64,000 bases of DNA, taken from IMG/VR virus record IMGVR_UViG_3300032300_000143; one strand, given 5' to 3'. Within the stretch, counting starts at the first letter, position 1, and each line of letters opens with the position of its first letter. Below are positions 1 to 27,500 of this stretch, piece after piece. The translations under genes were made by a program, and so were the position numbers. The notes beneath the pieces are model-generated. The model was not told where the DNA came from. It was given only the letters and a program-made list of their open reading frames with translations, and ran no database searches. Origin of the DNA: an uncultured virus (IMG/VR IMGVR_UViG_3300032300_000143) (Duplodnaviria > Heunggongvirae > Uroviricota > Caudoviricetes).

Positions 1-84
1 CTCCACCTGCTGCTCCATCTGCTGCTCCACCTGCTGCTCCACCTGCTGCTCCACCTGCTGCTCCACCTGCTGCTCCACCTGCTG
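1..84. repeat. 12-bp tandem repeat (CTCCACCTGCTG) x7 encoding AAGG repeats
   Basis: Seven consecutive units, one with a C>T change; truncated by the window edge. Confidence 0.95.
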
Positions 85-292
85 CTGGTGCATCACCAGC
101 AGCACCTACAGTAGCTTTACCTGCTTGGAATCCTTTTTTCACTGCTGAGCCTAGCCCGGCAACACCACCGGCCACTGCTCCGACACCTTTGGCCAAAGTA
201 CCTACACCTCTGCCTACAGCAGACCCAATCTTATTTAAAAGAGGACCTTCATCGAGTTGATGTGATTCAATTAATATTTCTTGTATTCTCAT
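1..292 (-). CDS. Gly/Ala-rich probable virion (head-internal) protein, runs off the window start
   Basis: Not in the ORF track. ATG at 292 reads MRIQEILIESHQLDEGPLLNKIGSAVGRGVGTLAKGVGAVAGG...AAGGAAGG, open to base 1; it starts 1 nt after the upstream stop. Confidence 0.8.
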   Translation of the reverse strand, partial: MRIQEILIESHQLDEGPLLNKIGSAVGRGVGTLAKGVGAVAGGVAGLGSAVKKGFQAGKATVGAAGDAPAAGGAAGGAAGGAAGGAAGGAADGAAGG

Positions 293-293
293 A

Positions 294-1772
294 TCATGCT
301 TTTCCTAGTTGTTTGGTAAGATGTTGTATCATGCGTTGTCTATCTTTAGTATTTAACTGCATAATTGACTTTTTAATTTCTGCATAACCGCCGGTTGCGG
401 CAGCTGGATTTTCCGCTGGGCTTGTGGTGTCTAGTTTCATATCAGTATAAACTTTGTTAACAATGTCATCTGATATTTCCATACTGGTTAAAAACTTTTT
501 TAATTCTTCGGAATCTGTTGGTGAACCGTCTAGTTTCCATCCGGCCAATAATTTTTCATAGGTAACTTTGTTAGTGATGTTCTGTCCAACACGGCTGATA
601 CCTTTACCTACTGCTGCTGCACCTTTTTTAATCCAATCCATAGGACCTTCATTTAGCTGTTCCGTAGTTGAAATTTTCTTTAATAATAGATAAACCTGAC
701 CTTCGCTTAATGGGCGAGTCTGCACATAATAACTTTCTTTCTTTTCAGATCCAGTTGACGCTGCTACCGCACCTTGAGCTCCTGCTTGAAGTCCTTGTTT
801 AGCGGTGTTAATAAATTGTAATAGACTATCGTTGTCTTTAGCTGCTTTCCATGCACCGTCTACCATATCCTGCATGTCTGCCATATAATCTTTACTGCGA
901 ACTATGTCAGCAACCATTTTTAACTGATCAAATCCTTCAACGGCTCCATCTCCACCGCCTTTAACTAGATTCATTGCTGCTCGAATAGCACTGGCTTCTT
1001 CTGGTTTAACAAGAGCATTAAATCCTTGAGTAGTCTGTGTCCACTCCATCCCTGGAGCTTTAATAGTTTTAGTTGCATCCCAGCTGATGTTTTCTAAGCC
1101 GGCATCACCTGATCCAAATGGTATAGCCTGTTCACGGAATCCTGCCATCCAGTTACCTAGCATCTCAAATGCTTTACCAGATAGGAAACCAAATGCTGCT
1201 GTTTTGACACCTTTGCCGATAGCAGTAGAAAGTTTTTCACCTTTGATCAGTTCAGCTGCACCTCGCAACACTTGACCAGCTATGGCGCCGCCAACTGGTC
1301 CACCTGCTAGGGATGCTAGTGCAGTTAGTACACCGATAACCGCTGCGCTTTTGCCTGGATTTTCTTTCATCCAAATGCCTAGATTTGAAATGCCGTCTAA
1401 GAGTTTTGAATCAGGAAATTTTTTATTAATGTCATTCTTGAGTTTTTCAAACTTTTGATCTGCCATTTTAACAGGAGTTGTGTTCTGCAGCCACTTACCA
1501 ACATTATTAATAGTATCGTTGACCTGCTTAACACCATCTACACCAAGTCCTGCAAGGGTTCTATTATCGCCGCCTGCAACAGCAGCTTGCTCAACATTTT
1601 TAAAGATTCCTTTAACTTGATCAGCTGTCAGACTAGCTTCAATTAACGGCACGAGTTCATTGTAGACGCCTTCTACAATAACTCTCTGACTTTCAGTTAA
1701 CCCGTCACAGCTTTCACGAAGTAACCTACGACCTTCATGAATGTGGAATTCCATTAATGTTGCTATTCTCAT
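294..1772 (-). CDS. Hypothetical late protein, possible head-internal/ejection protein (492 aa)
   Basis: Long ORF behind an AATAAATA late-promoter motif; glycine-zipper-like hydrophobic segment AAVIGVLTALASLAGGPVGGAIAG; several L/I-x-E motifs. Confidence 0.6.
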   Translation of the reverse strand: MRIATLMEFHIHEGRRLLRESCDGLTESQRVIVEGVYNELVPLIEASLTADQVKGIFKNVEQAAVAGGDNRTLAGLGVDGVKQVNDTINNVGKWLQNTTPVKMADQKFEKLKNDINKKFPDSKLLDGISNLGIWMKENPGKSAAVIGVLTALASLAGGPVGGAIAGQVLRGAAELIKGEKLSTAIGKGVKTAAFGFLSGKAFEMLGNWMAGFREQAIPFGSGDAGLENISWDATKTIKAPGMEWTQTTQGFNALVKPEEASAIRAAMNLVKGGGDGAVEGFDQLKMVADIVRSKDYMADMQDMVDGAWKAAKDNDSLLQFINTAKQGLQAGAQGAVAASTGSEKKESYYVQTRPLSEGQVYLLLKKISTTEQLNEGPMDWIKKGAAAVGKGISRVGQNITNKVTYEKLLAGWKLDGSPTDSEELKKFLTSMEISDDIVNKVYTDMKLDTTSPAENPAAATGGYAEIKKSIMQLNTKDRQRMIQHLTKQLGKA

Positions 1773-1794
1773 TTCATATCCAAGACTTATTTGT

Positions 1795-1802
1795 TATTTA
1801 TT
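1795..1802 (-). promoter_or_regulatory. T4-type late promoter (AATAAATA)
   Basis: Near match to the T4 late consensus TATAAATA, 22 nt upstream of the ATG at 1772. Confidence 0.6.
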
Positions 1803-2323
1803 ACAGCTATGAGCTAAAGCTCATATTCGTTTTCGCTTAACGCTCAACGAATTTCTTTTCTCTTAACATTGATTATACTAAGTGCAAAGCACTTTAAATA
1901 TTATCTAGATTGTTCAGTCACACTTAGCCCTTGCGGGCTAAAAAAATGAACATTATCTGAGTTGCACAATGGTCACTTAGCGTTACAGCATTACTAAGGC
2001 GGTCGTCCGGTACCTTTAGCTGCGTCTTAATACGACGGCGGGTCTGCAAATATACGCTAACATACTTACAGCCGTGGGCTCTTCACCCTCTTTTAGCCTT
2101 GATTAACACTTTCTTGTACAGTAAACCGGTTCCGTAGGCATATCCGATCATGGTCCTGTTAAGGATACTACTGTTACAACCCCTCTACCAAGTAGGGAAT
2201 TCCGTTGACTGCGATCCGAGATCCAGCTTTAAGGGCACTCTAACAACGCCGGTGCGGGCTTATTTGGCAGTTTGTTGCCTAGATTTATTGAGCCTAAGTA
2301 TGCCTAGCGGCAGTGTGTGATTG
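1803..2323 (-). ncRNA. Candidate large structured ncRNA, or structured DNA element/origin
   Basis: ~520 nt with no ORF in the track, GC-richer than the flanks, with many hairpins (1808-1825, 1880-1894, 1924-1941 with a GCAA loop on the minus strand), G-U-containing stems on the minus strand, a loop-tail pseudoknot candidate and an 8-bp long-range pairing. Confidence 0.55.
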
Positions 2324-2758
2324 TTAGATTTTGGGTTTTTTGAGGATATGTGAGCCGTGAACTCGAACCTGTATGTGACCGTTGTACCAGTCAGTTGATT
2401 CTAGAACTTTGTGTTTGAATTGTTCTCTTGCCTCAATGTAGCTGCATTCTGATTTGTTTTTGCAGTAGAATAGAATTTCTCTAGTGAAGTTTTCTTTGCC
2501 TAAGGCCTGTACGTCTGCTGTTAGCGAATCGCTAGAACCATAATAGTCCTTCCAATCGCTTTCAATTTTGCCTCTAATCTTTTTTTTCTTCTTTTTGCCG
2601 TTCTTCAAAGTTACTGTTTTATAAGTGGTCTTTGCAAATTTAGCTAGTTTTTTGCCTATGTATCTTCGCCCAGAGATGACATTTGTAATAAGATATACGA
2701 ATCCGATATACTCTTCTGATATTTCATCAACAATTTTTTTCTTATACAACCATGTCAT
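2324..2758 (-). CDS. Small GIY-YIG family endonuclease
   Basis: GFVYLITN...RRYIGKK (GIY-YIG variant), YYGSS, NFTREIL, and conserved E (YIEAREQ) and N (WYNG); basic KKKKKK insert. Confidence 0.85.
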   Translation of the reverse strand: MTWLYKKKIVDEISEEYIGFVYLITNVISGRRYIGKKLAKFAKTTYKTVTLKNGKKKKKKIRGKIESDWKDYYGSSDSLTADVQALGKENFTREILFYCKNKSECSYIEAREQFKHKVLESTDWYNGHIQVRVHGSHILKKPKI

Positions 2759-2988
2759 CCCTTATGTATCTTAGGGGGCCTTCCTACCATGCCTTTTCTG
2801 GCTTGTTTTCGTATTTCTCGTTTTTCTTGTATTTCTACTCGTCGTATACTTGCCTGATCTCTAATTTCTGATAATGCGTTTCTTGCCTTAATGCCTGCTT
2901 CGTCTGAATTTTTATATTCAAAACGATCCTGCCATTTGAAATATTCCTGAAAGGCCCGGATCATTTTGTCATGCGCTTCTGTGGTCAA
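2755..2988 (-). CDS. Small basic protein, Hc1 (histone H1-like) N-terminal-like
   Basis: AGIKARNALSEIRDQASIRRVEIQEKR resembles the Hc1-family helix pattern; basic C-terminal tail; overlapping start/stop coupling. Confidence 0.45.
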   Translation of the reverse strand: MTTEAHDKMIRAFQEYFKWQDRFEYKNSDEAGIKARNALSEIRDQASIRRVEIQEKREIRKQARKGMVGRPPKIHKG

Positions 2989-4763
2989 GCAACAATCTCC
3001 ACATCGTTGCTATAGCTGGTGAATCCGTTCTCTTTGATAACTTTGAGCACGTGATTAACACGACTGGTTAGATCATCTCTATGCGAGATTAGGAAAACAT
3101 TCTTGTTACGTTCGCGAGTCATCTTCTTTAAGACTGCAATACTTGATTCAACTCCGCTGGCATCCATACCTGAATCTACAAGTTCGTCAATAAACAATAG
3201 ATTAATGGCCTGATATAAGTTTTCCCAAACATCACGGAACGCCCACGACAATGATAAAATCAATCTGTTGCGTTCTCCACGGCTTAGATTGTCAAAGTCT
3301 AGATCTTGTCCTAACTGTGTGATGATCACAGTAAGATCGTTTTGAAACTCTACAGTGTGCGGTAAACCAATCTTGTCTAGATAATAGGTCAATCGTTGAT
3401 TGAGATAGGCCAAGTTTTGATCAATTATACGTTTACGAATAAAACTGTCTTTGTTGGTCAGTAACTTGTGCAAAAATTCTTGATGATCTTTGATTCTAAT
3501 TATCTCATTAAGATTGTCATAGTCAATGACCTGAACTGCGGTGTGTTTTAATTCTTCAATCTGTTCAAGATAGGGATTGGTTTCGCCTGCTTTGATCTCT
3601 ATGTCACGTTCGAATCCGCTGAGTGTATTTTTGTGATTTAACGCCTGTTCTAGATTGTCGTAGATCACTGCGGGCATTTCACCTAGTTCACCTAACTCTT
3701 TAACAGCATCAGTATGTTCTAACAATTGTGTATTAGTTGCTAATGCCTGCAAAGCAGTTTCTTGCAGATCTTTGCGTTTCTTTTCTAATAACGCTACCTG
3801 TTTGTCATCGTGAAAACCTTGTCCGCAGCTATGACAGGTATGATTTTCTAAACTAGCAATATCTGCTTTAAGTTTATCCATCTCTTTGATTTCTCTAGCT
3901 TCGTCTAGCTCGCACCGTTTGATCCAACCGGTAAGATCGTTGATAGTCTTACGTTTCGTGTTGTAGACATCTAATGCTCTATGTGCGGCAATTTCTTGAT
4001 CGATATCTATGTCTAGAAGCTTTTCAATGGCTCTAGCAAGATTAGTGATGCTGGTTTCATTTTGCTCTTCCCACATCTTTTGTTTACGTTCTAGCGACTC
4101 TATGCTTTGTTGTATGCGGTCGTTGGATATTTTTATAGTTTCGATCTTGGTATTTTCTGTAACTATGGAATCCTTGCTAATCTTGATTAATTCTTTAAGA
4201 GCTTCGGCTTTTTCGCTCAATAAGGTAATACCCAGTAGCTGTTCAATGATGGCTCGTTGATCAGCAGCCTTCATCGACAGAAACGGTTCTGTGTAAGTGT
4301 TTAAGGCCACAAGATGTTTAAACATGTCATGAGTCATACCAAATACATCTTCGATGGATTTTTGTGTTTCTCTACTGTCGCCTTGACTTTCGTCTTGATC
4401 TAGATTTTCTTGTTCTCGTCCATTAACAGTAAACTTTAGAACATTGGGCTTACGACCTCTTTCTATGTGATAATCAACGCCGTCTTTTTCAAAACTCATT
4501 GTAACCAACATGCCTTTTCCGTTGATTTTGTTTACAAGATTATCTTTCTTGATGTTGGTTAGTGCATTACCGTAGATAGCATAACTGAGACCGTTGATAA
4601 TTGTAGTTTTACCTGTACCGTTACGAGCACCGCTGTCGTCACCACCGAGGTCAAGGTTCTCGCCTAGTACCAAAGTCAATTGTCCGCGATCAAAATCAAT
4701 GGCCTGTGTTTGTGCGCCCACACTCATGAAATTGCGAACGGTTAAATTCTTAATCTTAATCAT
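2985..4763 (-). CDS. gp46: Recombination endonuclease ATPase subunit (gp46/Rad50/SbcC-like)
   Basis: Walker A GARNGTGKTT, coiled coil with Zn-hook CHSC, signature LSRGE, Walker B LLFIDE, H-loop ISH. Confidence 0.95.
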   Translation of the reverse strand: MIKIKNLTVRNFMSVGAQTQAIDFDRGQLTLVLGENLDLGGDDSGARNGTGKTTIINGLSYAIYGNALTNIKKDNLVNKINGKGMLVTMSFEKDGVDYHIERGRKPNVLKFTVNGREQENLDQDESQGDSRETQKSIEDVFGMTHDMFKHLVALNTYTEPFLSMKAADQRAIIEQLLGITLLSEKAEALKELIKISKDSIVTENTKIETIKISNDRIQQSIESLERKQKMWEEQNETSITNLARAIEKLLDIDIDQEIAAHRALDVYNTKRKTINDLTGWIKRCELDEAREIKEMDKLKADIASLENHTCHSCGQGFHDDKQVALLEKKRKDLQETALQALATNTQLLEHTDAVKELGELGEMPAVIYDNLEQALNHKNTLSGFERDIEIKAGETNPYLEQIEELKHTAVQVIDYDNLNEIIRIKDHQEFLHKLLTNKDSFIRKRIIDQNLAYLNQRLTYYLDKIGLPHTVEFQNDLTVIITQLGQDLDFDNLSRGERNRLILSLSWAFRDVWENLYQAINLLFIDELVDSGMDASGVESSIAVLKKMTRERNKNVFLISHRDDLTSRVNHVLKVIKENGFTSYSNDVEIVA

Positions 4764-5770
4764 AGGTTGTTATATATCTCCAACAGCATGTTCTTTTCAA
4801 AGGTATCACTGTCAATGGCATTTATTTGATTCATTACAATAGTGTCTACGCTTTCAAAGTTAATGTCAATGGGCGTTGAGTTAGCATCAACTTCAACTTT
4901 TTCCGGAATCAACATGAGTTCGCGCAGTTTGTATTGCGACACAAATGTTTCTTTAATAAAATTGGCTTCTTCAAAACTAATAGGCAAGTCAATAGTAACA
5001 CGACAATGCATACGTTCTCGTAGCAATTGATTTGGCTTGTCAATAATTTGACTCAATTTATATGTTCTAAAGGTAGGCTGATCAGGCCAAGACTTAAACT
5101 CGGGTAAGCCGCCCCACTCTAAGATCATCATACCGCGATCATCGTCACCGGCATCTGCATAGTTGTGTGGAAAAGCATTGCCGATGTAATGTATATTCTT
5201 GTTGTTTTGTCTTTTATGAAAGTGTCCTGTGAATACGTACTCTTGGTTGACAAAGTGCCCGGATTGAATTGTGCCATGATCAGGCATCTGCACCATGGCG
5301 TTCATATAGAAGCTAGGAAGCTCTAAGTGTCCAAACAGATATCTACTTTTAATATTAGGAATATCTCTCCATTCATCAGCAACCAACCAGGGTATAATAG
5401 TAACATCGCCCTCTGTAAGACGCTCTCTGATAGGAATAATGTTAGGAAATAGTCGCATAAACTCGACGGAGTTGATTTCGCGTTTGTCCTTGTAGAACAG
5501 GTCGTGATTGCCTAGAATGAAATAGACCTTTTCAAATGACTGACTCAACTTTTCCAAATTACTAACAGTATAGTTCATGGTACTAACGTCTGTAGTACTG
5601 CGATTGTGATGCCAGTCACCTAGAAAGATAGCAGTTTCACAACTCTGTGCTCGAGCAGTATCACAAAACCAAGAAACGAAATCTTCGCAGTCTTGATTGT
5701 GTGTGCGACTACCGCTTTTAAGTCCAAAATGTATATCAGTAAAACAAGCAACTTTTTTAAATAGATTCAT
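4760..5770 (-). CDS. gp47: Recombination endonuclease nuclease subunit (gp47/Mre11/SbcD-like)
   Basis: Metallophosphoesterase motifs DIHFG, GDWHH, GNHD, GHFH; adjacent to gp46. Confidence 0.95.
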   Translation of the reverse strand: MNLFKKVACFTDIHFGLKSGSRTHNQDCEDFVSWFCDTARAQSCETAIFLGDWHHNRSTTDVSTMNYTVSNLEKLSQSFEKVYFILGNHDLFYKDKREINSVEFMRLFPNIIPIRERLTEGDVTIIPWLVADEWRDIPNIKSRYLFGHLELPSFYMNAMVQMPDHGTIQSGHFVNQEYVFTGHFHKRQNNKNIHYIGNAFPHNYADAGDDDRGMMILEWGGLPEFKSWPDQPTFRTYKLSQIIDKPNQLLRERMHCRVTIDLPISFEEANFIKETFVSQYKLRELMLIPEKVEVDANSTPIDINFESVDTIVMNQINAIDSDTFEKNMLLEIYNNL

Positions 5771-5776
5771 ATCTTT

Positions 5777-5805
5777 ATTTTACACTAATTTCAAACAAAG
5801 GTCAA
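5777..5805 (-). promoter_or_regulatory. Sigma70-type promoter for gp47, probably giving a leaderless mRNA
   Basis: TTGACC-17 nt-TAAAAT; the ATG follows 6 nt after the -10 box. Confidence 0.6.
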
Positions 5806-6659
5806 TCCCAATCACTACCATCCACTGAACTGGTACTTACAGCACCACTGACTCCGTTTCCGCTATTCTGTCGAGTCCACGATGGATTCATTCCGTTCAT
5901 TTCTAAAATATCATCTCGGATATTTTGATTGCGTTTTTCTATGTTGATGATCCTAACAAACGAGTTAGTAACGGCGGCAGTATAATAAGCAAAAGGATTG
6001 TCCGATTTACTCTCATCAAACTGTAAACCAATTTGAGTAAGTTGTAAAATTGCCTGTCCTCGCATTTCATCATTGTAAGTATATCCTCTAACGTTTCCAC
6101 GAGTTGCATATCGTTCACAGAGTTTGATAAACATTCTAGCTAGATTGTTAGTCATTTGCCCGTGTTCTTTGTTAAAAACCCCATTGAGTAAGCCACCTTT
6201 CCAATGACTTTTTCCCACACAAATCAAGTTGTCGTTGTCATCGAACTTCCAGTGTTGGAACGGAGGAAAATTTACTTTGTCATGACTGTCAGCGGTATTT
6301 TTCAAAGTTTTTTTACGACCAGGTGCTAGAGGAATATGATCAAAGGTCATTACACGAAATACCAAATCCTGTTTTTGTACCTTGCGATAGTCTACTTCAA
6401 ATTCTTTAATAGATATTTTCTTACCACCAGCAATCACTGCTGCCTCGTGGTTCTGTTTGGCCATTTTTACAGCTCTGTTCCTTTTTGCTTCAGCTATAGT
6501 TCTCACATTGATTTTTGCAAGATTAGCAACAATAAGATCGTATTCGCTGTATTCGGGTAGAGTAAAACTACAGAAGGTATTTTTACTAAGATGTATTTCT
6601 CGAAGCAAATCCTTGTTGGTAAGGTATTTGATCTTGGGCGGCTGGGCAATGATAGTCAT
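5802..6659 (-). CDS. gp55: Late-transcription sigma factor (gp55-like)
   Basis: YLTNKDLLREI N-terminus, N(V)RGYTYNDEM, FDESKSDNPFAYYT motif; position next to gp47/gp46 as in T4-like phages. Confidence 0.85.
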   Translation of the reverse strand: MTIIAQPPKIKYLTNKDLLREIHLSKNTFCSFTLPEYSEYDLIVANLAKINVRTIAEAKRNRAVKMAKQNHEAAVIAGGKKISIKEFEVDYRKVQKQDLVFRVMTFDHIPLAPGRKKTLKNTADSHDKVNFPPFQHWKFDDNDNLICVGKSHWKGGLLNGVFNKEHGQMTNNLARMFIKLCERYATRGNVRGYTYNDEMRGQAILQLTQIGLQFDESKSDNPFAYYTAAVTNSFVRIINIEKRNQNIRDDILEMNGMNPSWTRQNSGNGVSGAVSTSSVDGSDWD

Positions 6660-15530: not shown

Positions 15531-18500
15531 ATGGCAAAAGATATTTTCCCTCAAAGTCAGTTACCAATTCGCAGAACTGTAGAACTTCTACCAGAAGTCT
15601 TTCAAACTGAAACCAATGCAAAATTTATGTCTGCAGTTGTTGATCCGTTGGTTCAACCTGGTACATTATCTAAAACAGTTGGCTACGTAGGTCGTAGATA
15701 TGGTAAGACTTATAATGGTTCGGATGTATATCTGGACACAGATGCTACTCTTAGAAGCAGATACCAGTTAGAACCTGGTGTCACAGTCAAAGAAAAAGAC
15801 AAAGTAGAAAATTTTTATGATTATATTGATTTTAAAAATCAATTGAAATTTTTTGGTAACAATCTAGAAAGAGATGATTTAATCACAGATCAGGATCATT
15901 ATTCTTGGACTCCTCCGATTGATTGGGACAAGTTTGTAAATTTTAGAGAATATTATTGGGTACCAGATGGTCCTCCACCTGTCACCGTATTTGGTCAACG
16001 GCAATCTATAATCAGCACATATAGAGTAAGATTAGGAGTAGGGTCATCATGGGTATTCTTTCCAGACGGTCTGTCGTTGAATCCTACTCTCACATTATAT
16101 AGAGGACAAACATATAAGTTTCAAGTTAATGCACCAGGCGAGGGTTTTGTTATTAAAACTGCCTATGATACTGGGTCATTGGTTTACAAACCTTATCTAC
16201 CATACCAACAGGGTCAATTTGCTGTATTCAATAATAAATTATGGAAAGCCAAAACTTTTATCGCTGTGACTGATGGAAGCACCATAGATGAAAATAGTCA
16301 AGATTGGGAATATGTTGAAGCAGCTAGTCAGGGCACCGCATTAGACTATAATACAGGAATTACCGGCCAAGGTGCAACTAATGGCACATTGACTTTTACT
16401 GTACCGTTTGACGCACCCGATGTGTTGTTTTATCAAAGCGCCACAGACATTAATAGATTTGGCAGATTCCTCATTGCGGACATTGAATCAAATACTAAAA
16501 TTGATATCACTAATGAAGTTATTGGTAAAACTACATATGTTAGCAGTAACGGTATTACATTTACTAACGGTATGAAAGTTAGATTTTCTGGGTTAGTAAC
16601 ACCTACAAAATATTCAGCAGACACTTGGATAATAGAAGGTGTTGGAGAATCTATTAAATTAATAAGATTTCAAGATTTGTCTCCTCCGACTCTTAGTACA
16701 TCGAGTTTAGAAGTGTTGTTTGACGACGGCGGATTTGACACAGAGCCTTTTGATGATGCAGCTACATACCCAGAATCAAAAGACTATATTACAATTAACA
16801 GAGCCAGCCAAGATTCAAATCCTTGGAGCAGATACAACAGATGGTTTCACAGATCAGTTCTAGAACAAGCACACAGCTTCAACGATAACGAGTTTGATTT
16901 GGTCGAAACAGCTCGAGCCAAGAGACCTATTATTGAATTTTCTTCAAATCTGCAGTTATTCAATCACGGTAGTCTAGCAAAAACTCCGGTTGATTTTATT
17001 GATACTTTTACTACCGATGTATTTTCAACCATAGAAGGCAGTCTCGGTTATAACATCGACGGCGAAGAATTATTCAATGGTGCTAGATTATTAGTTACAG
17101 CGGATACTGATACATTGGCCAACAATAGAATTTACACAGTAAATTTTATAACTCATAATAATCGCAGACAAATTAATTTAGTAGAAACTACTGATGCAAA
17201 TTCTACTATCGGTGACGGAGTGTTTGTTAGACGAGGTCTTCTAAACAAAGGAATAATGTACCACTTTAACGGTACATCTTGGGTGCCTAGTCAAAAGAAA
17301 ACCGCAGTAAATCAGAGTCCGTTATTTGATGTATTTGACGATAATGGTGTCAGTTACGGAGACATGGATACATATCCTGTTAGCAGTTTCTTAGGAACTA
17401 AACTAGTAAGCTATAAAGTTGGAAACAGTATTGTTGATAACGAATTAGGATTTAGTCTAAGTTATCTTAATATCAATAATGTAGGAGATATTGAATTTAA
17501 TTTTGACTGGGATATAGATTCATTTGATTATCATTCCAGTAAAGAAGTATTTTTTAAAACTATAAGACAGGGGTATTATAAATTTACCAATACAGGAAGT
17601 TATGCTAACGGATGGCTTAAGTCTGATCGAACATATTTACAGCCAGTAATTTACAGCACCACAGTTACTGAATCTTCAACACGCATTGTTAGTGATGGAA
17701 TCAAATGGACAGATGTTCAAGATGATGAAATTTCTAAAATTTTAATCTACATAAATGGAATAAAATATTCTGGAAACTACACTAGAAATCAGAATATTTT
17801 TACGTTTCCTAACAGTCTTAAAATAAATGACATTGTTACCGTTAAGGTTTTTGCAGATGCAGATCCTCATCTAGGATATTATGAGATTCCAGTAGGGCTT
17901 GAAAAAAATCCTTTAAACGGCGAAGTAAAAACATTTACTCTAGGACAGGCTGTTGACCATGTTTCAACAGCAATAGACCTATTTGATCAATTTAGTGGGT
18001 CATATCCGGGATTAAGTAATCTAAGAGATATTACCGGTTATCAAAATCTTTCAAGAAGATTTTTAAAACACTCAGGAATTACACCCACAGCAATAATGTT
18101 AATGTGCGACAAGCACGTAAACATTATTAAATCTATTCAGCACGCAAAAAAATCTTACACAGAATTTAAAAATAATTTTATTAAATTTGCCGAAACTGCC
18201 ACATACAATCTAGATCCTGTTGGATTTGTTGATGAAATATTGGCTATTATGTCTAAAGTTAAAACGCAAAAAGATGCGTTTGCAGATTCTGATATGGTGG
18301 GCAGCGGCGCCTACAATCTCAAAGAATATGTTGTAGAAGACACAGAAATTACAACTTTTGCACTGAATACAAAATTTAACTTAACGCAACTTAGCAGAAC
18401 AGCAGTTTATATCTATATAAACAATATACAGTTGATTCACGGTATTGATTATACATTTAATGATACGTTTGGATTTGTAAGTGTTTCCAAAGCACTAACA

Positions 18501-21500
18501 GAAGGAGATATTATTCAAATAAAAGAATATGTTTCTTCAAGTTTCTGTTTCATTCCGCCAACCCCTTCAAAATTGGGTTTATATAAAACCTACACACCGT
18601 CTTTGTTTTTAGATGATACCTACGTGACTCCTATTAATGTCATCCAAGGTCACGATGGCAGTATCACAGTAGCCTACGGTGATTTTAGAGATGATGTATT
18701 ATTAGAATTAGAAAAACGCATCTACAACAACATTAAGCAAGAATATACAGAAGAATTGTTCAGCCAAGATAATATTCTTGGAGGATACTACGGATCATCT
18801 ACATACACTAAACAAGAATTAGACAGCGTGATTAGTTCTGAATTTCTAAGATGGTTTTCTGAAACAAATGTAGATTATTTAACTAACACCTTTTTTGACA
18901 GTGAAGATTCTTTCACCTATACCTATTCAAATATGGGAGACCCAACCGGACAGCTAAATTTACCTGGATGGTGGAGAGGAGTTTATACTTGGTTATACGA
19001 CACTGATAGACCACATCGTTGTCCTTGGGAAATGTTGGGATTCAGCCAACAACCTAGTTGGTGGGAAGACCAATACGGGTCAGCCCCATATACAAGTAAT
19101 AATTTGCTATTGTGGGAAGATCTATCTGGCGGCATAATTCGCCAAGGATCTCGTGCAGGAATTTATGATAGATATAAAAGAGCTACATTACTAAATCATA
19201 TCCCTGTAGACGGAGACGGCAACCTGTTAAGTCCATTTGAATCTGGATCGGCTACTAATTTTGTTTTATACAACAACAAAGGCACATTTAAATTTGGAGA
19301 TCTAGCTCCGGTAGAATACGCTTGGCGTAGTAGCAGCGATTATCCATTTGTTATTATGTTGGCTCTATGTCTAATGAGACCTTATGAATTTATTATTGAA
19401 ACTCTTGATAAATCTAGAATTAAGGTTAACAAAATTGGACAGACGGTTAATAAAAATACAAATTTATTTTTCAAGAATACAGACATTATTATTCCAACAT
19501 CTGGAGGCAATCAAACTTCCGGCCTTGTAAATTATGTTGTAGATTATTTGAGATCAAGGGGACTGACCGAATCAGTACTACAAAAGAAAATAGACAATTT
19601 AGATGTTAATTTGTCTACTAGATTAAGTGGATTTGTAGATCAAAGTCAACAAAAATATATTTTAGACAGTAAGAATCCTAGCGCCAGTACCAGCAATATT
19701 TTTCTTCCTCAAGAAAATTATGACATTAATTTTAATATCAGCTCACCAATTTCTAGCCCAAGTTACAGTGCATTGGTAATTGAAAAATTAGCCAGCGGAT
19801 TTAAACTGTTTGGTTATGACATTAGTGAACCTTACTTTAGATATTTTGAAGCTGTTAAGAGCTCTAATGATCCTTTAATATCAGTTGGCGGCGTAAGTGA
19901 AAATTTTATCGACTGGGAAGCCAACAAGATTTTTGGTAATGGAACAATAATTAGGGTAGCTGATATTTTTTACAGATGTATTAAATCACACACAAGTGGC
20001 ATAGAATTTGACGCACAGTTTTGGCAAAGAATAGCAAAATTACCGTTGGTAGGTGCAGTAGAAGTTTTTAGAAGAAGAACAGTAAACAGCGCCGCAGTAA
20101 AAGAATTACCTTACGGCACAGTATTTGCATCCCTGCAAGACATAGCAGACTTCATTGTTGGCTATGATGCATATCTACAATCTCAGGGATTTGAATTCAC
20201 CGGCTACGACGGAAATCTAGAATCAGCTAAAGATTGGATAACATCAATAAAAGAATTACTATTTTGGTCAAAACACAAATGGGCCGAAAGTTCATTGATT
20301 ACATTAAGTCCTGCAGCTGCAAAAATAGAATTAAACATTAATATTGGAGTTGCTGACAACCTGCTTGATAGCTTTTATGATTATAATATTTTAAAAGTTG
20401 ATGGAACTATTTTGCCTGTAGAATTTATAAATGTCAACAGAGAGTTTAAAAAAATAACAGTGGATGTTGTTAACGACTCCGACGGCATATACTTCTTTAG
20501 ATGTTATTTTGTTTTAAAAGAACATGTAACAATTTTTGATGATCGCACAGTGTTCAATGATGTTATCTATGACAAACCAACCGGCTATCGTCAAGAGCGT
20601 ATCAAGAGTCGCGGATTCCGCACAGTAGACTGGGACGGTGATTATACTAGCCCTGGATTCTTGTTTGACAACGTTAATATACAGATTTGGCAACCTTTTA
20701 CTGATTATAAACTAGGTGACATTGTCAATTACAAATCTTACAATTGGACTAGTCTAGTAAATCAACAAGGATCAGACCAATTCAAAGACAGCAATTGGAC
20801 TAAATTAGATACAACTCCTGCTAAAGGATTGATCAGCAATTTTGATGTTAGAGTCAGCCAGTTTGAAGATTATTACAACGTGGATGCTGACGGTGCAGGT
20901 GCTAGCCAGCGTGAGCTAGCAAGACACCTCATAGGATATCAAACTAGAGAATATTTGCAGAATCTTGCAGAAGATAATGTCACACAATTTAAATTGTATC
21001 AAGGATTTATCAGAGAAAAAGGCACAGCTAACGCTGTGGTCAAAGTTTTTGACAAGCTCAGCAGAATCACTGCCGACAGCATTGTGCTAGATGAAGAATG
21101 GGCATTTAATGTTGGTAGATTGGGAGGTCTAGATCAACTTAATGAAATAGAATTTGAAATTGTTAAAGACAATCTGTTGGTAAATCCACAGGCCATAGTT
21201 GTTACAAATGGACCAATTGATAAAAATTCATTAGACAAATATCTTAGAGTAAATCAAACTAACTTCACTAGATCTCTATTGCCGTACAGCGTTGACATCA
21301 ATCCGTTGACCGAGTATCAAGGAATTACAAGAAATGCCGGATATGTTAAAACAGATCAAATAGAATTATTTGTAAAATCAAGAGAAGAAATACTATCACT
21401 AGATATTTCATCTTTGATTGAAAATTCTCACATATGGGTCACTTTCGATAACGCATCTTGGACAGTGTTGAGATTTAATCTCAACACAGCCCTAACAATT

Positions 21501-24500
21501 GAAGATATTGTCAAAAATTCCACTACAAACATAGTCACTGTAACTACGAGTCAAAAACACGGACTTACTGTGGATGAAATTGTAGGTATAAAAGACATTA
21601 TAAATTTTACCGGATTTTATAAAGTTGTAGCAGTTACTGATTATACCTTTGGCGTTCAAGACGGCCCCGGCCCCGTGCCAGCTGCTCCAGATATCAGTTC
21701 CATACAATACAACATATATCTGTTGACTCAATCTCGATTTAATTCTTATCAGGATGTTGGAGATCAAACAGCTTCCTTGTTAAAGCAAGGATCAAAATTA
21801 TGGATAGACAACGCCGATGCAACTGTGGGCAATTGGGAGGTTGTTGAAAAACAAAGACTGTACGCTGAAAAAATTATAACTAATTTTGGAGCCACAGATC
21901 CTAGAAATACAGGAAGAGCTGTAGTATATGCTGCCAATCTCAATCAAGTCATCACAGGTATACCTTCTGCCAACTCCGTAATGGTTTACTCAGAAACTGC
22001 TACGGGATTATCTGTAAAAGAAATACTACAGCCAGAAACCGGATTTGCAAATACACTAGCAAATAGCTTTGGTGATGCTATTGCTATTAGTCCCGATAAC
22101 GTTTGGTTGGCAGTAGGAGCTCCCTTGGCTTCCGGTGTGCCTAGTAGATTCAAAGGAATCTATGAGGACACTTATTCCTATATTGCAGGCGACATAGTGT
22201 TGCAAAATGGAAAATTATGGGAAGCCACTAACGATCAACAACCTGGCGATGGTAGTACCAACACTCTCAACACATTGTCTGCAAATTTTAGAAATGAAGA
22301 TTGGAAACTTGTTGATATAGTCTATGCCAACGCATCAGGATCTCTAGGACCAGTAAATCAAGGTTTAGTGATTCTGTACAAACGAAAAAATAATGCATGG
22401 GAATTGCAACATACAATTCTTAGTCCCCGAATTGAAGCAAATGAAAAATTTGGATCCAGTATATCTATTGGAGTTTCTGGAGCAAATTACTACATGTCGA
22501 TCTCTGCTCCGGGATCTCTCAATAATCTAGGCAGGGTATATCTTTACAAATACACAGGTACAACAGCAGGATCAACTACACAGATTCTTACATTTAATGG
22601 TACTAGTGCTGTAAATTATGTAGTGAATACAATTACATTTTCAAGAAATCATAATTATATTACCGGTCAACTTGTAAGATATCTCAATGGCACATATGCC
22701 GGAGATGATAAATCTGCAGCAACATCACCACCGCCACCTGAAGATTACACTATTTTGTATGTAATAAGAATTACAGATACTGTCATACAATTAGCAACTT
22801 CGGTAGTAAACTCTACAACCGGAACAGAAATTGACCTCAAAGATTTTGGTATAGATGATTCAAGTTCTCATACTTTAATCAGTACAGCAACTGTTGGTTG
22901 GAAACAAATGGGAGATCCTGAATATCGAGGATTGTATACCAACAGTGCTAGTGCCATTTACAGTCAAGGATCTAAAGTTTGGTATGAAGGAAAAATATAT
23001 CAGGCACTAGAAGACACCTACGGTGATGGAACATCGCTTGATTTATCTACCAGTAATTCTTGGCAAGTGTTAGATGAGTCTGTAACTGAAGTTTCGCTGC
23101 CATCAAACATTGCTTTAATCGACAGCGGAAATATTGTTCCAATTTTTCAAGACAGTTCTACAGCTATTCTAGGATCAGTGTATCCGTTGGTTGCTGCCGG
23201 CAGTTTTAAAGTAGGTGAAATATACAGAATTGAATATTACGGAACTACAAATTTTGAAATTATAGGTAGTAATCCTGCAGCCGGCGACGGCCTAACATTC
23301 AAAGCTACTGGAGTTGGTTCTGGTACAGGCACAGCCAGATGGATATCCTATCAGTTTGCAGAATTAATTAAAGCTGGCGATATGTTTGGTCAAAGCCAAG
23401 CCATGAGTCGAGATGGTGGTATTTTGGTAGTTGGAGCCCCTGAAAGTGACGGAGTATACATTGCTAACTACAAAGGTTCATGGACAAATTATCAAACATA
23501 TTACGAAGATGATGTAGTAAAGTATTCTGGAAATTATTATAGATTAGTTGATTATAATCCTATTACAGGCGGCGAAGCAGATTCGTCTGAAGATTCTACT
23601 TATATAACAACTAGTAAAAATGATGTTCCTACAAGCAGCAGTCCTCAAGGCCCTTGGACTCTTGTTAGTTCTGAAATTTCTCTTCCTTCTGGAAAGATTT
23701 TTATCTACAAAAGAAATGCCAGCGACGTCTACGAACTAGCTCAAACAATTACTGCCGGTTCTCTAACTGAAATTAGTGATGTGTCAACTATTGACAATCT
23801 AAATACTGGAGACAAATTTGGAACAGCAGTAGACATTGACTATAATGGAACTACAATTATTGCCAGTAGTCCACTAGCAGATGTAAAATCTTCTGATCAA
23901 GGGGCAGTGTTTGTGTTTAAGTCAGCACAATTGGATAATATTTCTTATAGATTAAAACAAAGATTAATCAGCCACGAAAATTATGTCAATGAATATTTTG
24001 GTTCTGCTATTAGTATAAGCCCTGCAACAGAAAAAATAGTTGTTGGCGCCACTAATGCCAGTTTCAATCTGTTTACAATATATGATCAAGGTTCTACATC
24101 GTTTGATAATACAAACACTACATTTAGTTCCGACGAAGGTAACACAGGACAGGTCTATGTATTTGAAAGAAAAGATCAAACTTATCATTTAACAGAAAAA
24201 TTATATGTACCAGATCTCCAAGACTGGGAATCATTTGGTTCTAGTGTAGACTGTATTGGCTCTGTAATAGCTGTGGGATCTCCTACCTATCGTGATACTG
24301 TGTATAGAATAGGTGTTAATTTCACAACCACTATTCTATTAGGTGCTAGCGGAAACAACGCACTTACAGTAGACGTAGTAATACAAAGCGGAGTTATTGT
24401 ATCTGCTATAGCTAAGGATTCTGGAGCTGGATATACTGTCAGTGACATAGACGATGCTACTGATGCTATTGAAATCAACGGATCTGCAGACAAGGCTCGT

Positions 24501-27500
24501 ATTAAAGTACAGACAATGTCAGGTGGTACTATAACTAGTTTGTTTGTAGTTTACGGAGGCAGTGGATACACCGGCAGTGCAGAAGTCATTGAAACTGGCC
24601 AGGTTAGATTGTTTACTAAAGACACAACTAAAAATCCGTGGAACACTATTGCCTCTAGACAAGATCTAACTGATATAGAATTGTTTAAAAATATTTCAAT
24701 GTACGATAATGAAAACAATGTAAAAATTTCAGACATTGAAATAGTTGATCATTACAAATTAAAAATACTAGGCGCAGCCGAACAAGAATTAAAGTTTAAA
24801 ACTCTGTATGATCCTGCCACATATACCAACGGCACTGATCAACAAGAAGTTGATGAATCTCAGGCCTGGTTTGAAAAACATGTCGGAGAACTATGGTGGG
24901 ACCTAAGCACAGCCAAATGGTTGCTGTATGAACAAGGAGATATTTCTTATCGAATCGGTAACTGGAATCAATTGGCCTACGGTGCAAGCATTGATGTGTA
25001 TGAATGGGTAGAATCAAAATATTTGCCTAGCAGATGGACTGTATTGGCAGATACAACCGAAGGTCTTGCACAAGGAATTTCAGGCCAGCCGTTATACCCA
25101 GATAATACAGTGTATTCTGTAAAGATTTTAACTAATCCTTCAACAGGCGAAACTACAGATACAAAATATTATTATTGGGTCAAGAATAAAAATATAGTAC
25201 CAAAAAATGTTCCAGGCAGAAGAATTACGGCTTCGGATGTAAAGAGTTATATTGAAAACCCAATAGGCACAGGACAGCCTATACTGTCTCCGATAGCCGC
25301 TGATACACTATTAGCTTTCAATTTTGAATCTTTGATTTCTTCAAATACCGCGTTGATTAATATTCAATATAGAAAAAATCTAAAAGCCTTAAATGCTATT
25401 CACAATGAATATCAGTTGTTGACTGAAGGCGTTGTAGACAGTCTTCCAACAGAAACTCTAGAAGCCAAATGGATAGACAGTTTAGTAGGGTACGATCTTG
25501 CTGGTAGTATAGTACCGGACGCTGGTATACCTATTAAGCAAAGATACGGTATAAGTTTTAGACCTCGTCAGGCAATGTTCAAAGATAGATTTGCTATTTT
25601 AAAAACAGTAATTACCAATATTAACTCAGTATTAAAAACTCGAGCGTTTTCCGATACTTTAAATTTTATCAACCTCGGATCAGTTGATCCAGAACCGGCT
25701 AGTGTATTAAATCAGTACGATGTACGTGTAGACACACTTACTGATCTTGCAGAAGTGGGAACAACAAGGGTAAAAAAAGCTGTATTAAGAGCCAATATTG
25801 TTGACGGAGAAATTGATACTATTGATATTGTTGATTCAGGATTTGGCTACAGGAATGCTCCATTCGTTAATATTGAAGGAAACGGACAAGGAGCCACAGC
25901 ACAAGTAACTATTGACAGTCAAGGCAGAATAAATTCTGCTACTGTATTGTCCAAAGGTCGCCGTTACACAGCTGCCGTAGCAGAAATAAGATATTTTTCT
26001 GTTCTAGTGGCTCAAGATAGTTCAATCAACAATTACTGGAGTATCTATTCCTGGGACGATATAAGAAAAACTTTCTTTAGGTCTAAGTCTCAGGCTTTTA
26101 ATACTAACAACTATTGGGAATATATTGATTGGTGGCAAGACGGGTACGGAGTGACTTCTAGAATAGTTAAAGAAATTACCGACCTTTATCAAGAATCTGC
26201 AATATCTGTCAACGTAGGAGACCTAATACGTATTCAAGAATTTGCTAATGGCGGTTGGGCAGTTTTAGAAAAAACTGAATCTACTCAAGGTAATATTTTA
26301 GATAATTATATTCTTGTTGGCAGAAAAAATGGTACCATTAATTTAATAATTGACGATCTAGTTTCTGTACAAAATATAGGATATGACAATGCCATTTCTT
26401 TTGATGCTAATGTTTATGATATAAATCCTACACAAGAACTGCGTAACATTTTAAAAGCAACTAAGGAAGATATTTTTATTGAAGACCTTAGAGTGGAATG
26501 GAACAAATTATTCTTTACCAGTATTCGATATGCGTTTGTAGAACAACCATACATTGATTGGGCTTTTAAGACCAGTTTCTTAAACGCCACTCATAATGTT
26601 GGAGATTTAGAGCAAAAAATAAATTATAAAAATGATAATTTAGAAAATTTCCAAGAATACATAGAAGAAATTAAACCCTATAGAACCACAATTAGAGAAT
26701 ATATTTCCAAGTACACAGATAGAGATACTTCGTATTCGGGAACTACCGACTTTGATTTACCTCCAGTGTATTCGACTCAAGATGGAAAAATATTACCAAT
26801 TGGATCAAACAGCGACAGATTTAGTAACTATCCCTGGAAGTGGTGGAATGACAATAACGGATACGTTGTTACTGAAATTATGGTGTCTAACGGCGGCGCT
26901 GATTACACAGAAGTTCCTAGTGTAATAATTGAAGGCAACGGTATCGGAGCAACAGCCCAGGCATTTGTAGCCAATGGCAGTGTTGTAGCTGTAAAGGTTC
27001 TAAACAAAGGTCAAGGTTATAAACAGGCGCCTATTATTAGACTAGTTGGCGGCAACGGAACCAGTCAAAGCATTGCCAAAGCTGTGGCCATAATTGGCGA
27101 AACCGCGGTAAGAACATTTGACCTTACTGTAAAATTTGATAGAATTGCCAAGCAAGGAATATACCAAACGTTTACCAAATCTGAAATTTTTACAGCCACA
27201 GGAGTTTCTGCAGTTTTTCAATTGCAATATGCTCCTAATAGAGACAAGAGCAAGATTTCAATAACTAAAAATAATCAAATTGTATTGAACAGTGAATATA
27301 CAATCACATTGTATACTTCCACAACGGATACATATAGCTTGATCAAAGGCAAATTAATTTTCAATATAACTCCAGCTCTAGGTGATGTGATAGAAATAAA
27401 CTATGAAAAGAATGTAGAATTATTTGATAGCATAAACAGAATCGAAAACTATTATGCACCTACTGAAGGAATGCGTGGCAATGAACTGGCACAATTAATG

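Follow-up and report, generated by a model that had tools for sequence, protein, structure and literature searches.

A conserved, modular structured RNA of about 450 nucleotides behind a nuclease gene in uncultured freshwater T4-like phages

In phage T4, segB is a free-standing homing endonuclease gene located in a tRNA cluster. The large RNAs GOLLD and ROOL are reported to form RNA-only multimers (10.1101/2024.12.08.627333). The Polynucleobacter-1 RNA motif was obtained from one Polynucleobacter genome and freshwater metagenomes, with 16 representatives, and the entries on the motif in Weinberg et al. 2010 (PMC2864571) rated it 'RNA: likely' and 'cis-regulatory: likely' and gave no known function. 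Here we analyzed IMG/VR virus record IMGVR_UViG_3300032300_000143, a stretch of 64,000 nucleotides (nt) from an uncultured T4-like phage that is called, as a whole, the window. A sequence-only reading of this DNA had singled out a non-coding gap directly behind a GIY-YIG nuclease gene as the candidate site of a structured RNA that would serve as guide or partner of that nuclease.

The minus strand at 1809-2260 was found to be a real conserved structured RNA of about 450 nt, composed of three modules and supported by covariation, and hundreds of uncultured freshwater T4-like phages carry it. Its fold acts at the RNA level or at the single-strand level and contains at least two pseudoknots. Module A is already catalogued, and modules B and C are uncatalogued. 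The reading that we favor, and hold to be probable rather than assured, is that of an autonomous modular RNA forming the 3' extension of an operon of gp47, gp46, a small open reading frame (ORF) and the nuclease gene, with the nuclease as a replaceable neighbor. The main features are as follows (aa, amino acids; R1, the covariance model of module B).

2324-2758, minus strand: GIY-YIG nuclease gene, 144 aa, catalytic domain only, PF19835 SegE_GIY-YIG
1773-2323, minus strand: non-coding gap of 551 nt after the GIY-YIG gene
2261-2323, minus strand: lineage-specific spacer of low conservation, with the 5' arm of a long-range pairing and a small hairpin at 2266-2279
2114-2260, minus strand: module A, the Polynucleobacter-1 RNA motif (RF01718), full-length Rfam match
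1969-2104, minus strand: module B, a new double-pseudoknot domain, matched by R1 at 133.5 bits, single copy in the window
1809-1988, minus strand (approximate limits): module C, new, which holds the twin 7-mers RSAURAW

Relatives were collected with the GIY-YIG protein, 80 viral loci being retrieved of at least 447, and the structures were tested on structure-blind MAFFT alignments of 65 sequences for module B and 64 for module C. Alignment pairs are numbered by gap position p, which corresponds to window position 2324 - p in the minus-strand reading. Conservation after the nuclease gene ran from p ~64 to 530; the element, first put at about 520 nt, has a conserved part of about 450 nt, and the initial 60 nt or so behind the stop codon lie outside it. 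The single sequence folded unremarkably (z = -1.94; 4 of 100 shuffles folded equally well), and since such folding is weak evidence by itself, the case for an RNA rests on covariation. Covariation, by which the sequence-only reading had proposed to judge the element, was found in helices of modules A, B and C, and blind mutual information recovered the helices of modules A and B and both pseudoknots. The strand was that of the nuclease gene, as had been proposed: one pair was G-U in 57 of 64 sequences and another was U-G in 43 of 64, and because G-U pairs were so frequent the fold was assigned to this strand. One proposed pairing was not borne out by the relatives. The 8-bp long-range helix of 2299-2306 with 2135-2142 exists in the window, but 50 of 64 relatives lack its 5' arm, and the remaining ones show uncompensated changes.

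The gap at 1773-2323 was indeed the largest non-coding stretch of the window, and even when spurious ORFs of at least 50 aa were counted as coding it still measured 377 nt versus 177 nt for the runner-up. A coding function of the gap was rejected, its 41-aa and 56-aa ORFs being intact in merely 1 of 64 and 1 of 37 relatives, respectively. The locus contained neither a tRNA nor a tmRNA. Group I introns, GOLLD, ROOL and HEARO gave no Rfam match at E up to 10 in 1600-3000, and a match to cow-rumen-2 (19.1 bits, E 1.3) was discarded as noise because none of 20 other members of the family matched at E up to 1. A blastn comparison of the gap with 50,697 phage records gave no match.

The Rfam scan showed that the claim of no match to any known RNA was wrong for 147 nt. 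Positions 2114-2260, and these alone, matched RF01718 over model positions 1-141 with 75.6 bits (gathering cut-off 37; E 3e-14), and this was the sole Rfam family found in the entire window. Two stems noticed from the sequence, ACAGUA/UACUGU and GAUCGG/CCGGUU, proved to be helices of the Polynucleobacter-1 model, and both covary. Mutual-information pairs in module A were 152-204, 153-203, 154-202, 178-197, 179-196, 180-195, 71-87 and 99-114. In 3 of 151 Burkholderiales genomes the motif was present as well, with neither module B nor module C beside it. In one of these, a 1.9-megabase Burkholderiales genome, a lone Polynucleobacter-1 copy (L449; G054:C4:72577-72717) adjoins a fragment of a tyrosine recombinase (integrase) gene and lies 368 nt upstream of a 224-aa ORF on the same strand.

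A leader position of this kind was seen only in that bacterial copy; the phage copies follow a stop codon and are themselves followed by modules B and C. Two features lie on the downstream side of the phage element.

1795-1803, minus strand: T4-late-promoter-like UAAUAAAUA, in conserved columns 521-529, before the downstream gene
294-1772, minus strand: downstream gene, 492 aa, outside the element, 37-79% identical or absent in relatives

The UAAUAAAUA box, a putative counterpart of the T4 late promoter TATAAATA, bounds the element on its 3' side in this lineage. The 492-aa gene is variable among relatives, and at other loci convergent genes stand in its place. A cis-regulatory leader or riboswitch acting on the downstream gene, which was the original guess for Polynucleobacter-1, would agree with the published rating for the motif (PMC2864571), with the position of the Burkholderiales copy ahead of its ORF, and with the invariant core of module B, which resembles that of an aptamer. 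In the phages, however, the downstream gene is variable or convergent, the late-promoter-like box intervenes between it and the RNA, and the RNA adjoins the upstream stop codon instead; we therefore consider this explanation very improbable.

No Rfam family matched module B, of which the following parts could be delimited.

2044-2071, minus strand: 11-bp hairpin with loop 2055-2060, whose pseudoknot 1 partner is 1977-1982 (helices 2-4)
1998-2014, minus strand: near-invariant 17-nt core GGUACCGGAYRACCGCC, from invariant alignment columns

The model of module B, with five helices and two pseudoknots, gave 85.3% paired cells versus 31-45% in slid controls and 376 double-change cells versus 61-86, and the observed covariation was reached by none of 500 shuffles. 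Several features named in the sequence-only reading held up here. Among 65 relatives its 11-bp stem had 90.9% of cells paired, with double-sided changes at 10 of 11 pairs; the pseudoknot between UUAGCG (2055-2060) and CGCUAA (1977-1982) had changes on both sides at 6 of 6 pairs; and CAGC..CUAAAGG/CCUUAG..GCUG corresponds to helices 7 and 8 of the tested structure. Blind mutual information also yielded pseudoknot 1, through pairs 264-347, 267-344, 268-343 and 269-342. It was the first to reveal pseudoknot 2, which joins 2032-2036 (GUCGU, p 288-292) to 2002-2006 (ACGAC, p 318-322) and includes the YR of the core (2004-2005). In this helix, pair 290-320 was UA in 32 and CG in 31 sequences, and pair 291-319 was GC in 36, AU in 19 and GU in 8. 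The core starts with the self-complementary GGUACC (2009-2014, minus strand), which could pair between two RNA molecules; as a hint of multimerisation this is only a lead.

Module C consists of two similar units, each closing with YYY plus a 7-mer of the form RSAURAW, and contains the following elements.

1952-1958, minus strand: twin 7-mer copy 1, AGAUAAU, with invariant CUC in front
1924-1941, minus strand: GNRA-capped hairpin between the twin 7-mers, with pairing and double changes
1900-1906, minus strand: twin 7-mer copy 2, AGAUAAU, with invariant UCU in front
1880-1894, minus strand: hairpin behind copy 2, its GCUUCGC-type loop conserved among most relatives, with double-sided changes at 6 of 6 pairs
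1852-1864: conserved A-rich tract
1825-1852, minus strand: predicted 3' stem with conserved GAGCG...GCGAA
1809-1824, minus strand: predicted terminal hairpin; for these two 3' hairpins together, column conservation and mutual-information pairs 494-509 to 498-505

The GNRA hairpin had been proposed from the sequence and was well borne out (98.9% of cells paired, three pairs changed on both sides, 64 sequences), but the UGUUCA/UGAACA stem thought to enclose it was weak, with 54.9% of cells paired.

The 7-mers vary between phages, yet the two copies equaled each other in 131 of 132 unique elements. A pattern scan of viral contigs in which the copies were free to differ gave 120 loci, of which 120 had identical copies. 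Over all distinct elements, the twins agreed in 185 of 186. As a control, bacterial genomes were scanned for the same pattern, which gave 120 loci, 17 of them with identical copies; about 9 of the 17 were judged by their flanks to be true elements on short phage-like contigs of metagenome bins, and among chance matches 8 of 111 had identical 7-mers, near the expected 1 in 16. The lone unequal element (L034; GGAUGAU and AGAUGAU) may represent an intermediate state. With four two-state positions 16 variants are possible, and 14 were seen. The triplets CUC and UCU ahead of the copies were unchanged in 186 of 186 elements, and these fixed, unlike flanks speak against one repeat having simply been copied onto the other. 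The covariation in identity reached four more pairs, 348/403, 351/406, 360/412 and 361/413. The repeats are 47 to 60 nt apart, depending on how long the hairpin between them is, and show no helical phasing. At least 57 changes of the 7-mer state were counted on a tree built from the flanking sequence.

A role of the 7-mers as genome-wide promoter or target was rejected. YYYAGATAAT occurs 10 times in the window versus 2.3 expected; 8 extra sites are intragenic, and none of the extra sites fits the longer repeat with fewer than two mismatches. Contig G159 has another pair of matching 10-mers, but these are within coding sequence and were not matched by model R2. An element's own variant was not enriched in its flanks (1.5 kilobases (kb) either side, 230 loci), and in two contigs with complete match lists it was by eye not clearly commoner than other variants.

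We propose that the 7-mers are probably displayed in or near short hairpin loops, to judge from moderately supported stems. Both would be read by one common trans-acting partner that is present twice, either a protein dimer or a complementary nucleic acid in two copies. The partner would differ from phage to phage, and the 7-mers would thereby act as an allele-specific address. The existence of nearly all combinations at the four positions inclines us towards a nucleic acid rather than a protein as the partner.

Module B, detected by R1, lay downstream of the nuclease gene on the same strand in 73 of the 80 protein-selected loci. Of the seven loci lacking it, four are covered for less than 200 nt past the gene; at L072 and L076 module C follows an unrelated 5' part, and at L062 the gene stands in a different setting and the RNA is missing. 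In 20 loci selected by the twin loops, RF01718 and a strong module B (R1 match of at least 73 bits) were found in the same 10, a weak module B in 4, and neither in 6; no other Rfam family matched these loci. This pattern indicates that module C is the constant core and that modules A and B are exchangeable. At L072 (3427-3750) and L076, an unrelated stretch of about 320 nt that matches no Rfam family takes the place of modules A and B, and module C there has a further 7-mer variant, again equal in both copies. Alternative 5' modules may be present in about half of the family. Among the literature matches listed, no paper dealt with the larger RNA; PMC10690425 reports 8,495 candidate viral RNAs of 29-151 nt, among which pieces of the element may be present.

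Several observations bear on how the RNA is made. In many relatives it starts at the upstream stop codon or a few bases off, and since it abuts the stop codon there is no room for a promoter. Sites of the sigma-70 type in the gap were at chance level (4 found versus 3.7 expected), and a late-promoter-like ATAAAT was present upstream of module A in only 13 of 114 loci. Part of the stretch was found in six RNA libraries from lakes and fresh water. In four RNA libraries from four studies, contigs covered the nuclease gene and the RNA and bridged their junction in 4 of 4 examined (2301-2659, 2301-2662, 2234-2358 and 2175-2502), and one 372-nt contig spans 1784-2158. Some runs had no contig over parts of modules B and C, which is no evidence of absence. 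The proposal of a structured RNA on the strand of the nuclease and probably co-transcribed with it was thus supported by the start at the stop codon and by the contigs over the junction, and we suggest that the RNA would arise by read-through from the nuclease gene and would act on its own. A passive 3' end of the operon, in which the structure serves stability, termination or insulation and protects the upstream mRNA without a function of its own, would also close the transcription unit, begin at the stop codon and terminate in hairpins as observed. An RNA of about 450 nt that has two pseudoknots, unpaired cores free of variation and allele-specific twin sites goes far beyond what protection needs, however, and the minus strand of the gap contains no intrinsic terminator, which makes this the least probable of the explanations considered.

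The GIY-YIG protein matched PF19835 at 1.5e-32 over residues 3-129 of 144, and since the domain nearly fills the protein there is no DNA-binding tail, in agreement with the sequence-only reading. Its catalytic motifs are intact, GIY...YIG, YYGS, REIL, EA.EQF and YNG being conserved in 156 distinct homologues. The poly-Lys run, noted as an insert, turned out to be a family-wide feature rather than one peculiar to this protein. A PDB sequence search gave no significant match (best E 0.32). The arrangement was counted in 72 loci with the twin pattern and at least 1100 nt of upstream sequence.

57 of 72 loci: GIY-YIG gene ending at most 450 nt upstream of the RNA
6 of 72 loci: GIY-YIG gene farther upstream, with another ORF between
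1 of 72 loci (L207): GIY-YIG gene behind the RNA, in a different context
8 of 72 loci: without GIY-YIG

At six of the eight loci without GIY-YIG, and also at L137 and L228, a PD-(D/E)XK nuclease was present instead; the L137 protein matches PF24608 at 5.6e-30, and the others are 41-55% identical to it. L242 and L251 are true elements in other contexts with no nuclease within 1.6 kb. An empty nuclease slot was not seen in the gp46 context, GIY-YIG being present in 64 of 72 loci and PD-(D/E)XK in 6 of 72. Unrelated ORFs of 257-341 aa stand between the GIY-YIG gene and the RNA at L094, L101, L145, L149, L110, L248 and L249. GIY-YIG homologues were found in 487 cultured-phage records. In Melnitz, P-HM2, phiN3, ACP17 and C48C1 the gene lies elsewhere, in 5 of 5 cases without a large gap or module C, and a search of 5 cultured phage genomes with model R2 gave no significant match.

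At identical residues the same codon was used in fractions of 0.70-0.86 for GIY-YIG versus 0.49-0.56 for gp46 of the same genomes within the close group, and since this excess is nearly gone in distant relatives it points to recent exchange rather than a standing constraint. Along the locus, DNA identity is highest in the 3' half of the nuclease gene, where it exceeds both flanks, and mosaic across the RNA. Different 7-mers adjoin GIY-YIG proteins of 97% identity, and among pairs with 85-95% identity only 46% have the 7-mer in common. No specific coupling of protein and 7-mer stood out from phylogeny, the 7-mer tracking overall relatedness of the small ORF and of GIY-YIG. With PD-(D/E)XK replacement, intervening ORFs, homologues without the RNA and differing 7-mers, a role of the RNA as guide or partner of GIY-YIG, which was the central proposal of the sequence-only reading, is not supported. 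Replacement, exchange and differing 7-mers fit a mobile nuclease gene beside a conserved RNA gene, not an obligate pair. On the favored reading, the nuclease gene would be a replaceable, horizontally exchanged neighbor, either a free-standing homing-type gene that settled beside a highly conserved RNA gene or a housekeeping nuclease under non-orthologous replacement.

Several points weigh against the favored reading. The RNA-library contigs record presence, not strand, ends or abundance, and DNA carry-over is possible. The 57 changes of the 7-mers may largely reflect recombination among a few old alleles, and the stems that place the 7-mers in loops were 78.6% and 72.7% paired, which is moderate support. 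For the proposed partner, neither a third copy nor a complement of the 7-mers was found inside the element, within 1.5 kb either side at 230 loci, in the 64-kb window or, by eye, in two whole contigs. The absence of a DNA-binding domain from GIY-YIG is unusual for a homing endonuclease. A nuclease, GIY-YIG or PD-(D/E)XK, is retained near the RNA in 70 of 72 loci, and L207 (1601-2203) keeps the two together in a different context and in reversed order, with the RNA first and GIY-YIG about 110 nt after it; mere loose synteny would not require so much.

Because 70 of 72 loci keep some nuclease, we leave room for a functional link, in which the RNA is a partner of the upstream nuclease of either family and acts as guide or address through its 7-mers. 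Such a link gains from the adjacency preserved at L207, from the coincidence of the RNA start with the nuclease stop codon, from the want of a separate DNA-binding domain in both nuclease types, from the PHROGs label of the second type as a Holliday-junction-resolvase-like family, and from the allele-specific 7-mers. It is nevertheless unlikely: nuclease homologues occur without the RNA in other contexts in all five cultured phages examined and at L062, ORFs intervene at 6 or more of 72 loci, while 2 of 72 are without a nearby nuclease, nearly identical nucleases adjoin different 7-mers as described, no complement of the 7-mers was found nearby, and no long variable guide segment was seen, only the 7-mers varying, at four two-state positions. 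In a variant of this link, the RNA would mark its own locus, for example as an R-loop, for a structure-specific cut. The RNA and an interchangeable nuclease would then act at their own gene, with the 7-mers telling self from a co-infecting relative, and the cut, made close to the end-processing genes 46 and 47, would set off homing or recombination-dependent replication; alternatively, the RNA alone would be a self tag with a dimeric reader. We regard this locus-marking role as rather unlikely too.

The fold could also belong to a displaced single strand of DNA, since covariation would look alike in both cases; this too counts against the favored reading, and we favor function at the RNA level. 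It leaves a quite improbable explanation at the DNA level, a replication origin or other cis site at which the transcript primes or forms an R-loop and the repeats serve, like iterons, a phage-specific initiator. The site between recombination and late genes, the genome-specific direct repeats and the A-rich tract at 1852-1864 would suit such an element. The many G-U pairs and GNRA-type loops favor RNA instead, the repeats are spaced without helical phasing, GC skew simply tracks gene orientation with no origin signal, and no initiator gene was identified.

The genes upstream of the nuclease gene, all read on the minus strand, are as follows.

2755-2988, minus strand: 77-aa small ORF between gp46 and the nuclease gene, its stop overlapping the nuclease start
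2985-4763, minus strand: gp46, upstream recombination gene
4760-5770, minus strand: gp47, upstream recombination gene
5802-6659, minus strand: late sigma factor gene, 285 aa, phrog_12791

Homologues of the 77-aa ORF occupy the same place in relatives, always between gp46 and the nuclease gene. The protein matched no Pfam or PHROG family; with its basic C-terminal tail and GRP motif it is a candidate nucleic-acid binder, as judged from its sequence. Its relatedness was associated with the 7-mer allele no better than phylogeny would give. The late sigma factor homologue (285 aa) was matched over most of its length by the 286-position profile phrog_12791, and the shorter late-sigma profile phrog_234 matched only its C-terminal part, residues 163-265. 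Elsewhere in the window, an ORF at 2-292 (minus strand), which runs off the window edge, has a Gly/Ala-rich C-terminal tail derived from tandem CTGCTCCAC-type repeats, and a single giant ORF of 4892 aa occupies 15531-30209 (plus strand).

On these results, the orphan motif Polynucleobacter-1 of 2010 would become one module of a larger, abundant phage RNA that has two further uncatalogued domains and a defined genomic setting. The twin 7-mers, which change between phages and are equal within each, unlike their flanks, point to a partner that sets specificity. The locus also calls for caution, in that finding an ornate RNA next to a compact nuclease gene does not by itself establish an RNA-guided system.

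The RNA shares with the omega RNA of IscB/TnpB and with HEARO its position directly adjoining a compact nuclease gene. It differs from them in showing no long variable guide and no transposon ends; the nuclease folds here are GIY-YIG or PD-(D/E)XK, HEARO gave no Rfam match, and co-occurrence is not obligate. The constant co-occurrence of nuclease and RNA that marks omega-type systems was not observed, the nuclease standing alone in the 5 of 5 cultured phages examined and at L062, and the RNA without a nearby nuclease in 2 of 72 loci. The locus resembles free-standing homing genes such as T4 segB in that GIY-YIG adjoins a conserved structured-RNA gene, an unrelated nuclease fills the slot elsewhere, and the nuclease DNA is more similar between phages than the flanks are. 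It is unlike them in lacking a DNA-binding domain and in its presence in 64 of 72 loci, which is not sporadic.

Two analogies concern the RNA itself. Like bacterial small RNAs derived from 3' untranslated regions, it starts at the end of a coding region, and like the CsrB/RsmZ sponges and the guanidine-II mini-ykkC RNA it has two equivalent sites that suggest a two-fold partner. It is much larger than CsrB/RsmZ and such small RNAs, and the CsrA-type GGA is present in only some 7-mer variants. With GOLLD and ROOL it shares the character of a large, phage-borne, multi-pseudoknot RNA with conserved unpaired cores and unknown function, although it has no Rfam match to them, is smaller and modular, and is co-transcribed behind an operon. 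With Polynucleobacter-1, whose whole model was matched, it also shares the habitat, fresh water and Burkholderiales (PMC2864571). The catalogued motif of 141 nt stands alone in bacterial genomes and is absent from half of the phage family (present in 10 of 20 loci); here it makes up only the 5' third of a larger RNA, about 450 nt long.

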